Shown here: piece by piece, positions 27,874 through 37,274 of the stretch
Position numbering within the stretch: position 1 is the first letter of the stretch
How the letters are laid out: every line of letters begins with the position of its first letter
Assembly: GCA_965203805.1 (NCBI GenBank)
Contig: OZ241917.1
Span: 1,984,001 to 2,048,000 of the forward strand
Direction: 5' to 3'
DNA length: 64,000 bases
DNA from: Candidatus Latescibacterota bacterium
GTDB taxonomy: Bacteria; Latescibacterota; UBA2968; GCA-2709665
Notes under the pieces: generated by a model
Told to the model about the DNA's origin: nothing
Databases searched by the model: none
The model's input: only the letters and a program-made list of their open reading frames with translations
Translations under genes and position numbers: made by a program

Positions 27874-27981
27874 ATGGTTCCCAATCTGTGCGATCTCCCC
27901 GTTGCAGTCATGGTCGACAGAAGCGCCAGCCGGATCGGCGGCCTTCCGGTATCCGTATCGAGGTGGCGGCGGGGTGCGTAG
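27874..27981 (+). CDS. ilvB attenuator leader peptide (35 aa; 6 Val, 3 Leu, 1 Ile)
   Basis: GAAGGA RBS; MVPNLCDLPVAVMVDRSASRIGGLPVSVSRWRRGA*; its 3' end pairs with the terminator 5' arm. Confidence 0.7.
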   Translation: MVPNLCDLPVAVMVDRSASRIGGLPVSVSRWRRGA

Positions 27982-28009
27982 CCGGATTGGCAAATGCACG
28001 AATGTAGCC

Positions 28010-28043
28010 CGCCGTCGATGTCGATTCGACGGCGTTTTTGTTT
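28010..28043 (+). terminator. ilvB attenuator terminator
   Basis: CGCCGTCGA-7 nt-TCGACGGCG followed by TTTTTGTTT. Confidence 0.8.
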
Positions 28044-28140: not shown

Positions 28141-29916
28141 ATGGCAAAGCAATCCGAGCAAGTCCTCGCATCCGAAACCAACGGACGCCCTGAACGGCAG
28201 ATGGGGTTCGGTGGCGCGGCGGCGTCTCCCCCGTCACCGATGAAGGGCGCGGATATCCTGGTGGAAGCACTGGTCCGGGAAGGTGTCGATGTCATTTTCG
28301 GTTATCCTGGCGGCGCCAGTATGGAAATTCACCAGGCGCTCACACGTTCCAGAGTCCGAAACGTCCTGTGTCGGCATGAACAGGGTGAGATCTTTGCCGC
28401 AGAAGGCTTTGCCAAGGCATCCGGCAGGGTTGGCGTGTGTCTTGCCACGTCAGGTCCGGGAGCCACCAACCTGGTCACCGGGTTGGCCGACGCGAAGATG
28501 GATTCCGTCCCCCTGGTCGCCATAACGGGTCAGGTTGCGACACACGTGATGGGCGGCGACGCCTTTCAGGAAACTCCCATCGTCGAGGTCACCCGGCAGA
28601 TTACCAAACATAACTTCCTGATAGACCGCATCGAGGATATTCCCCGCGTCGTAAAGGAATCCTTCTACATCGCAAACACCGGCCGGCCCGGACCCGTGTT
28701 GATCGACGTACCGAAAGACGTGCAGCAGGCACTGCACGCGCCCCTGTGGCCGGACGACGTGGCCATTCGAAGCTACAATCCGAAGATCAGGGCCGACAGC
28801 GAGTCCATCGATCAGGTCGTCGGCGCGATCCGGGAAGCCAAACGGCCGGTTCTCTATGTCGGCGGGGGCATTGTGGCCGCCGGGGCCGCCGAGCAGCTGC
28901 GCGAGCTTGTCCGCAAGACCAATATTCCCGTGGTGCAAACGCTCATGGGGCTTGGCGTTTTTCCGGAAACCCACCCGCTCTCGCTCAGGATGGTTGGCAT
29001 GCACGGCACCGTATACGCCAACTACGCGATCAATCACGCGGACCTGTTGCTGGCCATGGGCGTTCGCTTCGATGACCGTGTCACGGGAAAGCTCGAGGAA
29101 TTCTGCAAACATGGCAGAATCGTGCACGTCGACATCGACCCGTCTGAAATCAATAAAAACAAGACCGCGCACATTCCTGTGGTCAGCGATGTCAGATTCG
29201 CACTTGAGGACCTGAATAAACAGGTGGAGCCCGGAGACTACACATCGTGGCATGCCGAATTGGAAACCTGGCGACGAAAACATCCGCTCGCTTACCAGGA
29301 AGCGGACGACGAAATCCTGCCTCAGCACGCCATCGACCTGCTGTACCGAATGACGGGCGGAAAGGCCGTGGTCTCTACGGGGGTGGGTCAGCATCAGATG
29401 TGGGCCGCCCAGTATTACCTGTTCGACGAGCCGCGCAACTGGCTCACGTCGGGAGGGCTTGGCGCGATGGGCTTCGGCCTGCCCGCCGCACTGGGCGCGC
29501 AACTGGCCAGGCCGGGCGAACTCGTCGTGAACATCGACGGCGACGGGAGCTTTGTGATGAATGTCCAGGAGCTGGCCACTCTATACGTTGAGAAGCTCCC
29601 CGTCAAGACGATCGTTATCAACAACCAGCATCTGGGAATGGTGGTTCAGTGGGAAGACCGGTTCTATCAGAGCAACCGGGGGCACACGTTCATCGGCGAT
29701 CCGGACGGCGGGATCCATCCCGATTTTGTCAGAATCGCAGAAGGTTTCGGAATTCCGTCGGCACGCGTAGACCGAAAGAAGGATCTTCAGAGCGCCCTGG
29801 AACGCCTGCTCGAGACACCCGGGCCCTATGTGCTGGATGTGATCGTGCCGTACCAGGAGCACGTCCTGCCCATGATCCCCGCCGGCCACACCTTCGCGGA
29901 TATTATAACCGAATGA
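28141..29916 (+). CDS. ilvB: Acetolactate synthase large subunit
   Basis: [73 protein letters not shown]. Confidence 0.96.
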
Positions 29917-34025: not shown

Positions 34026-34063
34026 AACCCGCCATCGAGTCCACTCGGTGGCGGGTTTTTTTT
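34026..34063 (+). terminator. valS attenuator terminator
   Basis: AACCCGCCATCGAG-TCCA-CTCGGTGGCGGGTT with an 8-T run at 34056-34063. Confidence 0.9.
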
Positions 34064-34487
34064 ATATGAATATCGAGGATTCCTGATGTCGCATCGACCA
34101 CACACATCGCGTTGCCTTTCCAGGCTCCCGGGCTATTCTCCGTACAGCGAACGGTCGGCAGCCACTATTGTCGAAAAACGTTCAGGCGCGATGCTGCGGG
34201 GGATTACGGTCGGCGACCAGTGGGTCGCCGGATTTCAGGTTCCCGGACGGGAAGGAAGCGCTCGATTGTGTGACGGAATTACTACCGAAGTTAGCCTCCG
34301 GGAGGACAGACAGGCCGATATCCTGGCCGCCGCAGATGTACAGCAGGATTGGCCGCGGCAGTTATGATTTGCCGGATGTGGGCCGTTACTTCGAGGTCCT
34401 CGAACTCACCGTCTTCGACGATTGGAGATTCCAGGGTACGGAATTTCCGGATTCGCATAATGGACAATACCTCCCGGGAGAATCAAA

Positions 34488-36932
34488 ATGGCATTATCCA
34501 AACAGTATCGTCCACAGGAAACAGAGCCTCGCCTTCAGGCGCGCTGGCGGCTCGCGAGTATCTACAAATTTGAGAGACAGGCCACGGGCCCTGTGTACGC
34601 AATCGACACCCCGCCTGCGACCGTGTCCGGAAAACTCCACATGGGCCACGTCTATTCCTACAGTCATGCTGATTTCATGGCGCGCTTCTGGAGAATGAAC
34701 GGCCAACGGGTGTTTTATCCTATGGGATATGACGACAACGGTTTACCCACCGAACGGTTGGTGGAAAAACTGTTGGGAATCCGCGCAAACGAAATTGGCC
34801 GCGAGGAATTCATAAATCAATGCTTGCGCGTCAGCTTGGCCACAGAAAGAGAATACGAGAGTCTCTGGATTCGGCTGGGGCTGTCGGTCGACTGGTCGCA
34901 TACCTACCGCACTATCGGTCGCGCCGCCCGGCGAATTGCGCAGAAATCATTCATCGACCTTTTCGAAAAAGGGCTCGCGTATCGTAAGAAAGCGCCTGCG
35001 GTCTGGTGCCCGGAATGCCAGACCGCCATCGCCCAAGCCGAACTGGACGAAGCGGATCGGATGGGCGAATTGGTCACAATAGACTTCCGCCTCGCGGACG
35101 GAAATCCAATACCGATCGCCACAACCCGGCCGGAGCTTCTAGCGGCGTGCGTAGCAATCTTCGTCCATCCCAGTGACGACCGCTACAGTTCGTTTATCGG
35201 CCACGACGTTACCGTACCACTTTATGGACGCGAGGTTTCGATATTGCAGGACAAGGGGGCGGATCCCGAAATGGGTACAGGGGCTGTGATGTGCTGCACC
35301 TTCGGCGACGCCGCTGACGTGGCATGGTGGCATTCTCATCACCTGCCGCTTGTCTCCGTTATCGACGGAAACGGCCGGTTGAACCGTGGATCCGGCGATC
35401 TCAACGGCCTTTCCGTACCAGAAGCCAGGCGACATATCGTAAGGACGCTTGATGATCGCGGTCTGATCCGGGATCGACGGCCCTTTCCACAATCAGTTCG
35501 GATCCACGAACGCTGTGACACGCCAGTGGAATTCATCGTCGCCCCTCAGTGGTTCATTAACATCCTCGACTTCAAGGACCGCTGGCTTAGCGCAGGCGAA
35601 GAAATATCGTGGCATCCCCCGCATTTGAAAACCCGCTACATTGAATGGATCGAAAACCTGCATTGGGACTGGTGCATCTCGCGACAGCGCAACTTTGGCG
35701 TACCGTTTCCGATCTGGTACTGCAAAGCTTGCGGAGACGTCAAAGTTGCCCCCGAACAGAAACTGCCCATAGACCCCCTCCAATCGTCCCCAGATGTGAA
35801 TTGCAATTGCGGCGCCGACGATTGGGTCGCGGAAACAGACGTTATGGATACCTGGGCTACGTCGTCGCTCAGTCCTCAAATCGCCGCTCGGTGGCAATCG
35901 AATAATGAGCTTTATGGTAACGTCTACCCAATGTCCATGCGCCCGCAGTCACATGAGATCATCCGGACGTGGGCCTTCTACACGATTGTCAGATCCCACT
36001 ATCATTGCGGTCGAGTACCTTGGAATGACGTATGCGTATCCGGTTGGGGCCTGGCTCCTGACGGTGCGGGGAAAATCAGCAAGAGCAGAGGCGGTGGACC
36101 GACGGCACCCATGGCCGCAATCAGGAAGTACTCGGCAGACGCAGTTCGATATTGGGCGGCCGGAACGGGTTTTGGAAAAGACACAGTCATTAGCGAAGAA
36201 AGAATCCAGGCCGGCGGCAAACTGATCAACAAGCTCTGGAACGTCGCCCGCTTCAGCGAACGCTTCCTTCAGGGATATCGCGATTCAATTGAACCATCAA
36301 CCCTGACCCCAGCGGACCGCTGGATTCTGGCGCGGGCACAACGCGTAATCAAACAGACAACTTGCTCTTTCCGAAACTACCAGTACGCGCAGGCAAGGCA
36401 TGCAGTCGAAATCTTCTTTTGGCGAGACGTGGCTGACAACTACCTGGAAATGGCCAAACAACGCCTTTATGCAGACGCCGAGGGCGCAGCAAGCGGCGCG
36501 AAATATGCACTATGTCACGTGCTTCGAACCTGCGTTCACCTCTTTGCGCCGTTTCTGCCCCACGTAACCGACGAGATCTACGCCGGGCTATTCGCAAAGC
36601 GTGGAGAATCCATCCACACCTCAACCTGGCCCTCGGTGGATGTGCGACTGGTGGACGATGTCGCGGAGGCGCACGGAAACCGACTGGTTGAGATTGCCAC
36701 TGCCGTTCGCAGATTCAAGAGCGAATCCAACCTCCCGCTCAGTGCGCCCGTGCATCTGTTACAGCTTTCAGTCAAGGATCATGCGCTCTCAATGTCGCTG
36801 AAGGAGGCTGAAGCCGATATGACCAGTATTACACGCGCTGACAAGCTTGACGTCCGGCTGAATCACCCTGTCGACGCCGGCCTTCGAGGCGTGCTCGAGA
36901 GCGATGCTGTATACGCGGCGGTTGACGTCTAA
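34488..36932 (+). CDS. valS: Valine--tRNA ligase, archaeal-type (short, no C-terminal coiled coil)
   Basis: IDTPPATVSGKLHMGH, YDDNGLPTER, ATTRPELL, GTGAVMCCTFGD, DWCISRQR, DVMDTWATSS, KISKS; 814 aa. Confidence 0.95.
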   Translation: MALSKQYRPQETEPRLQARWRLASIYKFERQATGPVYAIDTPPATVSGKLHMGHVYSYSHADFMARFWRMNGQRVFYPMGYDDNGLPTERLVEKLLGIRANEIGREEFINQCLRVSLATEREYESLWIRLGLSVDWSHTYRTIGRAARRIAQKSFIDLFEKGLAYRKKAPAVWCPECQTAIAQAELDEADRMGELVTIDFRLADGNPIPIATTRPELLAACVAIFVHPSDDRYSSFIGHDVTVPLYGREVSILQDKGADPEMGTGAVMCCTFGDAADVAWWHSHHLPLVSVIDGNGRLNRGSGDLNGLSVPEARRHIVRTLDDRGLIRDRRPFPQSVRIHERCDTPVEFIVAPQWFINILDFKDRWLSAGEEISWHPPHLKTRYIEWIENLHWDWCISRQRNFGVPFPIWYCKACGDVKVAPEQKLPIDPLQSSPDVNCNCGADDWVAETDVMDTWATSSLSPQIAARWQSNNELYGNVYPMSMRPQSHEIIRTWAFYTIVRSHYHCGRVPWNDVCVSGWGLAPDGAGKISKSRGGGPTAPMAAIRKYSADAVRYWAAGTGFGKDTVISEERIQAGGKLINKLWNVARFSERFLQGYRDSIEPSTLTPADRWILARAQRVIKQTTCSFRNYQYAQARHAVEIFFWRDVADNYLEMAKQRLYADAEGAASGAKYALCHVLRTCVHLFAPFLPHVTDEIYAGLFAKRGESIHTSTWPSVDVRLVDDVAEAHGNRLVEIATAVRRFKSESNLPLSAPVHLLQLSVKDHALSMSLKEAEADMTSITRADKLDVRLNHPVDAGLRGVLESDAVYAAVDV

Positions 36933-37038
36933 CGGGATCCTCAGTCGTCATCTATGGTGTGTGCCGATTTGATCTAAAAACCGTTTAAGTATCAGACCCT
37001 TTGGTGATTTTTACAGAGTGAGCCTGGAGACCTGACCA

Positions 37039-37179
37039 ATGACGACGCGTTGTTCCATCTACCACATCAATACCTCACTGAAGTCACCCGGAACAGCCGT
37101 GTGCCTGGACGTCAATCCCTACAACGATAATAACAACCATAACCCTATCCAACGGCGGGCAGGCCCAAATGGCAGCTAA
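37039..37179 (+). CDS. aspS attenuator leader peptide (46 aa, Asn/Asp-rich)
   Basis: GGAGA RBS 8 nt upstream; MTTRCSIYHINTSLKSPGTAVCLDVNPYNDNNNHNPIQRRAGPNGS*. Confidence 0.8.
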   Translation: MTTRCSIYHINTSLKSPGTAVCLDVNPYNDNNNHNPIQRRAGPNGS

Positions 37180-37196
37180 ATGTTCACCATGAAGAG

Positions 37197-37232
37197 AACC
37201 CGCCGTGGGTCGCACACCAACGGCGGGTTTTT
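37197..37232 (+). terminator. aspS attenuator terminator
   Basis: AACCCGCCGTGGGT-CGCAC-ACCAACGGCGGGTT then TTT (5-T run in total). Confidence 0.85.
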
Positions 37233-37274
37233 CATGATCGAAAACTCAGACCGTCAAAACAGGAGATTTATCCA

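Follow-up and report, generated by a model that had tools for sequence, protein, structure and literature searches.

Results

A leader open reading frame rich in asparagine codons precedes a second aspartyl-tRNA synthetase gene

We analysed a stretch of 64,000 nucleotides (nt) from a Candidatus Latescibacterota bacterium (contig OZ241917.1, positions 1,984,001 to 2,048,000; hereafter the window, whose own numbering is used throughout), with a focus on the short region that lies between valS and a gene, aspS2, for an archaeal-type aspartyl-tRNA synthetase (AspRS) of the kind called AspRS2. This region contains a small open reading frame (ORF) with a run of asparagine (Asn) and aspartate (Asp) codons, followed by a predicted intrinsic terminator that sits 45 nt ahead of the aspS2 start (Table 1). 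An initial annotation of the window had proposed that these are the parts of an Asn/Asp leader-peptide attenuator, and the ribosome-binding site, the 46-residue leader, the Asn/Asp run and the 11-nt copy of the terminator 3' arm that it described are each present where it had placed them.

Table 1. Features of the aspS2 leader region and of the two genes that flank it
Feature	Position	Strand	Remarks
Shine-Dalgarno GGAG of the leader ORF	37026-37029	+	9 nt 5' of the ATG at 37039; same place in the four closest relatives
Leader ORF, 46 codons, MTTRCSIYHINTSLKSPGTAVCLDVNPYNDNNNHNPIQRRAGPNGS	37039-37179	+	homologous ORF at 26/29 AspRS2 loci
Putative region 1, 5' strand of the anti-antiterminator, pairing with 37154-37164	37103-37113	+	from minimum free energy folds
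Regulatory codon run D V N P Y N D N N N H N (DVNPYNDNNNHN), 6 Asn and 2 Asp in 12 codons	37108-37143	+	
Region 2, 5' strand of the antiterminator, core CCAACGGCGGG at 37149-37159, in codons I-Q-R-R-A	37146-37160	+	
Codons R40-A41-G42-P43, RAGP motif, candidate ribosome arrest or parking site	37156-37167	+	
Region 3, terminator 5' arm CCCGCCGTGGG	37199-37209	+	
Region 4, terminator 3' arm CCAACGGCGGG	37217-37227	+	
U-tract TTTTT, expected termination point	37228-37232	+	
Shine-Dalgarno AGGAG of the AspRS2 gene	37261-37265	+	
Regulated gene, archaeal-type aspartate-tRNA(Asn) ligase (AspRS2), 439 residues	37275-38594	+	
valS, upstream neighbour	34488-36932	+	

Since Asn accounts for 2.9% of residues genome-wide (estimated from a crude ORF set), six Asn codons out of twelve are far more than expected. 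None of the NCBIfam families matched the leader ORF. The 11-nt copy of the terminator 3' arm is exact: CCAACGGCGGG occurs at exactly two places in the 64-kb window, once in region 2 and once in region 4, where 0.09 occurrences are expected by chance, and none of 100 shuffled sequences contained it twice.

The leader and its terminator are conserved with AspRS2

Homologues of AspRS2 were found in 29 of 61 related genomes at E values up to 1e-60 and, in a phylum-wide set of 168 genomes, in 26 at E values up to 1e-100, all of them from families f1, f2 and f4. At 26 of the 29 loci, the gene is preceded by a small ORF that carries an Asn/Asp run and the end N-P-[I/N]-[RQ]-[RQ]-R-A-G-P, followed by a terminator, so that the Asn run, the leader and the terminator that the initial annotation had described in a single genome have been kept at these loci as well. 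In 29 related leaders that we scanned (those of the 26 AspRS2 loci together with the orphan L079, L215, and L214, which duplicates L046), the 14 codons equivalent to the run include three to eight Asn (mean 5) and at least five Asn plus Asp, at positions that shift from one leader to another. Three loci are exceptions: at L033, a related leader is found 2.6 kb upstream, before ABC-transporter genes, and at L043 and L044 (genus g8), AspRS2 contains stops or frame breaks and the leader has lost its RAGP (RRRRHP and RRWRPP). At L045 and L046, AspRS2 also carries internal stops or frame breaks, yet the leader is still intact.

The gene upstream of the leader varies by genus (valS here, a methyltransferase gene in genus g6), indicating that the leader travels with aspS2. 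This bears directly on the simplest alternative, according to which the hairpin would be a plain valS terminator and the small ORF and the repeat would be there by chance. It is true that no other terminator is found between the end of valS and position 37199, and that the A-rich 5' flank of the hairpin resembles that of a bidirectional terminator; however, AspRS2 keeps this leader and terminator at loci with another upstream gene, an 11-nt repeat is not a chance expectation, and at the g8 loci leader and terminator were lost or have degenerated along with AspRS2. Such an origin is contradicted by the comparative data, and we regard it as hardly credible.

A covariance model built from 21 leaders gave 25 matches of 69-100 bits in 151 genomes, the next match scoring 45 bits; 24 of these 25 adjoin an AspRS2 homologue or a fragment of one, and one is an orphan. 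In this orphan (L079 and L205, G028:C19), leader and terminator are followed by an IS605-family TnpB gene, with OrfB_IS605 and Cas12f1-like TNB domains, and by no AspRS2. When 185,579 species genomes were scanned for the exact pattern, 70 stretches were recovered, including 18 true leaders that are labelled as Latescibacterota or Latescibacteria (16), Gemmatimonadota (1) and simply 'bacterium' (1); the other 52 are chance matches in long ORFs or GC-rich frames, for example in a Caulobacteraceae transporter gene. None of 80 metagenomic AspRS2 homologues (56-62% identity), five of which had less than 150 nt of upstream sequence, was preceded by such a leader; four ORFs that our filter flagged upstream of these homologues look spurious. 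L110 was dropped as a false match of the regular expression.

A few further observations concern the surroundings of these leaders. At L038, L039 and L040, a first leader-terminator unit (e.g., NPDSNPNNYGIQWRDLVLP) stands in tandem before the RAGP leader, about 450 to 300 nt upstream of AspRS2, which would place two attenuators in series. At L025, L027 and L036 (g6), an insertion of about 80 nt (TGACTGACGTTACGCA...), which may be a small repeat element, separates the terminator from the AspRS2 start. In the window itself, the covariance model also gave a partial match of 27.4 bits at 34027-34070 (+), about 420 nt before valS, that covers only the terminator part.

Two mutually exclusive helices covary across lineages

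The terminator hairpin is predicted to be very stable (-29.7 kcal/mol, z = -5.8, equalled by none of 200 shuffles), with one G.A mismatch and five U following it, and the fold of the whole 281-nt leader gave z = -2.27. If the leader is shortened so as to end before region 4, the predicted fold contains the antiterminator, in which region 2 pairs with region 3. In a 21-sequence alignment of leaders, 95.0% of 242 cells of the terminator were paired and six pairs had changed on both sides, a score reached by none of 500 shuffles; for the antiterminator (columns 9-20 with 69-80), 93.0% of 243 cells were paired, compared with 27-58% in slid controls, three pairs had changed on both sides, and one of 500 shuffles reached the score. 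Compensatory pairs in homologous leaders, which the initial annotation had named as a way to check its reading, are thus seen in both helices.

We also used a test that does not depend on the alignment, in which we searched each lineage for the upstream stretch that pairs best with the terminator 5' arm. Twelve of 13 lineages were assessed (L025 was dropped, a T-run in the loop having defeated terminator detection), and in all 12 the best partner was region 2, at -1 to +14 nt from the Ile codon (up to +33 in L021). Pairing energies ranged from -14.4 to -25.5 kcal/mol and were reached by at most one of 200 shuffles in 11 of the 12 lineages, L040 being weak (39/200); in the window, the duplex reaches -21.5 kcal/mol (1/200 shuffles). 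The proposal that the copy of the 3' arm competes for the 5' arm therefore agrees with both the partner search and the compensatory changes.

Conserved and covarying helices would also be expected of an RNA switch that acts without translation, such as a riboswitch, a T-box-like leader or a protein-binding leader, with the ORF merely incidental, all the more so since many aminoacyl-tRNA synthetase genes of other phyla are under T-box control. However, a permissive Rfam scan, T-box models included, returned no match at E values up to 10 except for a 14.7-bit chance match to an unrelated small RNA, and the T-box and riboswitch readings were dropped because nothing relevant had come from it. Conservation also proceeds codon by codon, amino acids staying the same as third positions vary, the start codon and its Shine-Dalgarno sequence are kept and, outside the helices, it is the composition of the peptide that is conserved rather than sequence or structure. 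We therefore consider a translation-independent switch very improbable.

Related leaders carry codon runs that look cognate to the genes after them

Mid-scoring matches of the covariance model turned out to be related leaders, in which a shared terminator/antiterminator core (CGACGGCGGG against CCCGCCGTCG) is combined with other codon runs. The genes downstream, named by eye from their translations without a family search, suggest a set of cognate pairs: Thr-rich leaders stand before a thrS-like ORF in four genomes (L224, L226, L230 and L241), Val/Leu-rich leaders before an ilvB-like ORF (L223 and L227), Lys/Thr-rich leaders before an asd-like ORF (L231, L233, L235, L242 and L243) and a Lys/Asn-rich leader before a lysS-like ORF (L238).

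Family f3 (L247-L266 and L237) provides a separate case. AspRS2 was found in none of its 76 genomes, and a second bacterial-type AspRS is encoded in 33 of them, with 59-66% identity among the copies and about 45% to the housekeeping copy. Nineteen of the 20 regions fetched upstream of this second AspRS gene contain Asn-rich leaders, which commonly form two leader-terminator units in tandem (e.g., ...QNNNNPLAPLRVF and ...NNNDNNPAIRARWRWP), the second unit sharing the Asn run, the terminator and the TTTTTCATG that follows with the aspS2 leader. Together with the cognate runs described above, the f3 leaders are independent comparative support for a sensing of codons.

Similar elements were seen elsewhere in the same genome and in its relatives. 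In the window, positions 27874-28040 (+), ahead of ilvB (28141-29916), include a 35-residue ORF (MVPNLCDLPVAVMVDRSASRIGGLPVSVSRWRRGA) and then a terminator (GCCCGCCGTCGA...TCGACGGCGTTTTT, about 28007-28040), and GGCGGCGGG at the end of this ORF is complementary to the 5' arm of that terminator; the element resembles an ilvB leader from the cassette family that includes L223 and L227. Outside the window, upstream of asd (G000:C1, about 992,700-993,100), a structured element that starts with GGTAGAGGCGC resembles, by eye, a lysine riboswitch. Relatives from genus g30 have a Lys/Thr leader at asd, where the genome studied here has this riboswitch-like element.

A model for attenuation at aspS2

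From the conservation at 26 of 29 loci, the alternative helices and their covariation, which all favour the attenuator that the initial annotation had proposed, we conclude that the region is very probably a ribosome-mediated transcription attenuator that ties AspRS2 expression to Asn-tRNA(Asn) and, to a lesser degree, to Asp-tRNA(Asp). According to this model, when tRNA(Asn) is well charged, the ribosome would pass the Asn codons and end on or just past region 2, which would then be masked, so that regions 3 and 4 would fold and RNA polymerase would terminate at or near the U-tract (37228-37232). With charged tRNA(Asn) in short supply, the ribosome would instead stall within the codon run, leaving region 2 free to pair with region 3; the terminator would then not form and aspS2 would be transcribed. 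The AspRS2 enzyme would make Asp-tRNA(Asn), which GatCAB would turn into Asn-tRNA(Asn), and the loop would be closed.

Several observations weigh against this model. A simple consensus scan detected no promoter at the locus, and the hairpin is absent from the list of a simple consensus terminator scan, probably because of its mismatch and of the size of its loop. The antiterminator fold of the shortened leader is no better than that of shuffled sequences (z = -0.47, 63 of 200 equal), and the pairing between regions 1 and 2 is inconsistent, being predicted for this leader and for some relatives but taking another form, or missing, in other lineages. Finally, region 2 begins 5 nt past the codon run, inside the reading frame, so that a ribosome stalled at the last Asn codon would cover part of it and only stalls at earlier codons would free it wholly.

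The leader peptide ends with an invariant RAGP motif

All 29 leaders that we scanned contain RAGP, located one to four codons before the stop, except in L040, where this distance is 57 codons: in this leader, there is no stop before the terminator and the frame stays open for 57 more codons. We tabulated the codons of 24 leaders, omitting L043 as decayed. Ile, Ala, Gly and Pro are identical in all 24 and third codon positions vary, with GCA 4, GCC 3, GCG 3 and GCT 14 for Ala, GGC 1, GGG 3, GGA 18 and GGT 2 for Gly, and CCA 1 and CCG 23 for Pro. Since two further genomes have N in place of I, the invariant core is R-A-G-P. Conservation of the peptide stops at the Pro, the next codon being free (N, I, K, W or A). 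At the two positions before the last Arg, the Arg/Gln switches are A/G changes that both allow pairing with a U of region 3, and these positions therefore look constrained by the RNA.

Selection on the C-terminal motif at the level of the peptide could also be expected if the 46-residue product had a function of its own as a small protein, such as a peptide precursor or a protein that associates with AspRS2 or GatCAB. Yet only about ten residues are conserved, the N-terminal two thirds differing wholly between genera, the length ranges from 29 to 56 residues, the position of the stop is free (with none before the terminator in L040), and the codons that are conserved coincide with the antiterminator arm. 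There is next to no likelihood, in our view, that the product has such a function.

In SecM and in Bacillus subtilis YwcI, RAGP forms the core of the arrest sequence, Gly occupying the P site and the Pro being essential, according to the main texts of PMC10987492 and PMC12992588. If Gly42 occupies the P site, region 2 would fall at -13 to -3 nt from that codon, inside the ribosome, and we thus read the motif as a signal for parking the ribosome on it. A ribosome parked at RAGP, its P site occupied by Gly and its A site by Pro, would cover region 2, making the off state the default whatever the position of the stop. Whether the invariant R-A-G-P indeed acts like SecM, arresting or pausing the ribosome so that the antiterminator arm is masked, appears to us an evenly balanced matter. 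A number of points speak against arrest. Region 2 includes the R codon and the GC of the Ala codon, which places part of the motif under a constraint from the RNA too. One of the same two papers (PMC10987492/PMC12992588) reports that the majority of the RAPP-like sequences tested in it failed to arrest efficiently, and PMC12992588 describes an avoidance of the motif in host proteomes for many phyla. In the crude ORF set of the present genome, no marked avoidance of RAGP was seen (observed/expected 0.71, mid-range among permutations; RAPP 0.28 and RGPP 0.375 in the same set), so that a generic stalling at RAGP in this host is unsupported. Furthermore, related leaders end without RAGP (...RRRDGA, ...RWRWP or ...PLRVF). 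In favour of arrest, a Pro-stop is found in the homologous f3 leaders at the place that aligns with the Pro of RAGP.

Apart from the aspS2 leader, no small ORF ending with RRAGP or R[AG][GP]P and followed by a terminator was found in the same genome, indicating that the RAGP module is no general device there. The main texts of PMC10987492 and PMC12992588 mention neither attenuators nor terminator-coupled cases.

An invariant RAGP with nearly invariant flanking residues (N-P-[I/N]) could also mean that the nascent peptide itself is the sensor, an Asn/Asp-rich RAGP chain that would arrest only upon binding a small molecule, such as free Asn or Asp, in the tunnel, as in TnaC or SpeFL, with the choice of terminator or antiterminator then set by the arrested ribosome. 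In an arrested ribosome, the Asn and Asp residues would indeed sit in the exit tunnel, and the lack of a stop before the terminator in L040 would suit such a sensor. On the other hand, the positions of Asn, Asp and His shift between lineages while the composition is kept, which fits a counting of codons better than specific contacts in the tunnel; in addition, non-homologous Asn-rich leaders that lack RAGP stand before the second bacterial-type AspRS, and other leaders of the phylum carry runs that are cognate to their genes. We judge a peptide sensor to be improbable.

If ribosome-mediated attenuation and arrest at RAGP were combined, the aspS2 leader would be a composite device: an Asn/Asp codon run that senses starvation, joined to an arrest peptide of the SecM type whose RAGP holds the ribosome over the antiterminator arm. 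It would belong to a modular family of Latescibacterota cassettes that share a core and differ in their runs (aspS2, the second bacterial-type aspS, thrS, lysS, ilvB and asd). This broader interpretation is tentative, and we rate its chances somewhat below even. The RAGP end, the tandem units in relatives and the phylum-wide set of leaders had gone unnoted in the initial annotation.

AspRS2 is probably non-discriminating

The product of aspS2 matched NF003483 with 474.6 bits (cut-off 353) and TIGR00458 with 384 bits (cut-off 368.4), and the closest solved structures are those of archaeal AspRS and of Thermus AspRS2; we take 1n9w and 3kfu to be structures tied to the Thermus/Deinococcus AspRS2/GatCAB route. 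Two candidate determinants of tRNA(Asn) acceptance, both in the anticodon domain, are a His instead of a Trp at the position of Thermococcus Trp26 and a Pro at that of Lys85. His24 of the present enzyme aligns with Trp26 of 3nel/1b8a, the discriminating Thermococcus enzyme, and with the His of 1wyd (Sulfolobus), and an Arg is found at the position of Lys85, so that one of the two determinants is matched. The enzyme is probably a second, archaeal-type and non-discriminating AspRS.

The genome, searched as the single 5.87-Mb contig that holds the window, also encodes an asparaginyl-tRNA synthetase (AsnRS, 488 bits), a bacterial-type AspRS at G000:C1:713097-714839 (764 bits) and gatB (551.6 bits, over its cut-off), the only GatCAB subunit gene searched for, while nothing above cut-off was found for AsnA, AsnB or the archaeal AsnA-like enzyme; a weak class-II match that came up in this search is EpmA. 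The initial annotation had suggested that the enzyme supplies Asn-tRNA through transamidation. The presence of gatB and AsnRS and the lack of AsnA or AsnB above cut-off speak in favour of this suggestion; the role itself is one that we infer, because the bacterial-type AspRS could be non-discriminating as well.

Among the 61 relatives, AsnRS is present in 58 and AsnB in 28. AsnB is absent from 15 of the 24 with an intact AspRS2 and present in the other nine, and 18 of the 61 have neither an intact AspRS2 nor AsnB and have kept AsnRS; on these last two counts, AspRS2 may not be the sole route to Asn, and the 18 genomes suggest that the bacterial AspRS may be non-discriminating too. The association between AsnB and AspRS2 is weakly negative (AsnB in 9/24 genomes with an intact AspRS2 and in 19/37 of the others), and AsnB is present in four of the five genomes with decayed AspRS2 copies. 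As this association is weak and the AsnB model, TIGR01536, also matches multi-copy paralogues, we make no claim that Asn is reached through AspRS2 only.

Discussion

With its Asn leader, aspS2 adds an amino-acid specificity and an anatomical variant, both new, to textbook attenuation. The initial annotation knew of no Asn-sensing leader for aspS, and the literature that we searched, a scope outside which most subscription journals fall, gives none either; a term search of the accessible text of two attenuation surveys, on Actinobacteria (PMC1262725) and on bacteria at large (PMC4833913), found no mention of Asn.

If the model is correct, this would be the first case of asparagine being read by a leader-peptide attenuator, and also the first regulatory evidence that a second AspRS of archaeal type is treated by the cell as an Asn-biosynthetic enzyme, induced when tRNA(Asn) is undercharged, which bears on the question of why some bacteria keep AsnRS alongside the transamidation route. 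It would also mean that a phylum without a cultured member relies widely on classical attenuation for the genes of its aminoacyl-tRNA synthetases as well as for its amino-acid genes. Such leaders offer access to the regulatory logic of the phylum from sequence only and can help to annotate the AspRS copy that is likely non-discriminating. If RAGP does arrest the ribosome, arrest peptides and transcription attenuation, which are usually studied in separate fields, would be linked in a compact and portable switch that is off by default, and the composite device, should it be real, would be the first case of an arrest peptide that determines which state an intrinsic-terminator attenuator takes by default.

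The enterobacterial leader-peptide attenuators include trpL, hisL, thrL, leuL and ilvL, as well as pheM, which precedes the aminoacyl-tRNA synthetase operon pheST. The aspS2 leader shares with them the short ORF, the run of cognate codons, the intrinsic terminator and the position of the antiterminator 5' strand beside these codons, and with pheM-pheST an aminoacyl-tRNA synthetase gene as its target. It differs from them in that Asn (with Asp) would be sensed, in that the target is a second AspRS that would feed tRNA-dependent Asn synthesis, in that the whole of region 2 lies in the coding frame and it is the RAGP end, rather than the position of the stop, that is conserved, and in that the host belongs to an uncultured phylum.

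The T-box leaders of Firmicutes (aspS, asnS and asnA) offer a functional parallel, with the same signal (charged versus uncharged tRNA), the same terminator/antiterminator output and the same class of genes, but the T-box binds the tRNA directly and without translation, and the aspS2 leader has no T-box match.

Considering the RAGP motif, the likeness with SecM and YwcI, both RAPP-like arrest peptides of the RAGP type (PMC10987492 and PMC12992588; see also PMC10951299), lies in a C-terminal R-A-G-P in a small upstream ORF, in a conservation that ends at the A-site Pro and in a predicted regulation of the downstream gene. Known cases of this type, which a pulling force relieves, act on the translation of sec or yidC genes or, for YwcI, have an unknown output. 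By contrast, in the aspS2 leader the motif is coupled to an intrinsic terminator and preceded by a codon run that would sense starvation, arrest is only predicted, and the upstream context, N-P-I/N-[RQ]-[RQ], is unlike that of SecM.

As for the enzyme and its setting, Thermus and Deinococcus make Asn on the tRNA through AspRS2 and GatCAB, and Thermus thermophilus and Deinococcus radiodurans have the same gene set as the present genome, namely a bacterial AspRS, AspRS2, AsnRS and GatB and neither AsnA nor AsnB; we know of no leader-peptide control of AspRS2 in these two species.

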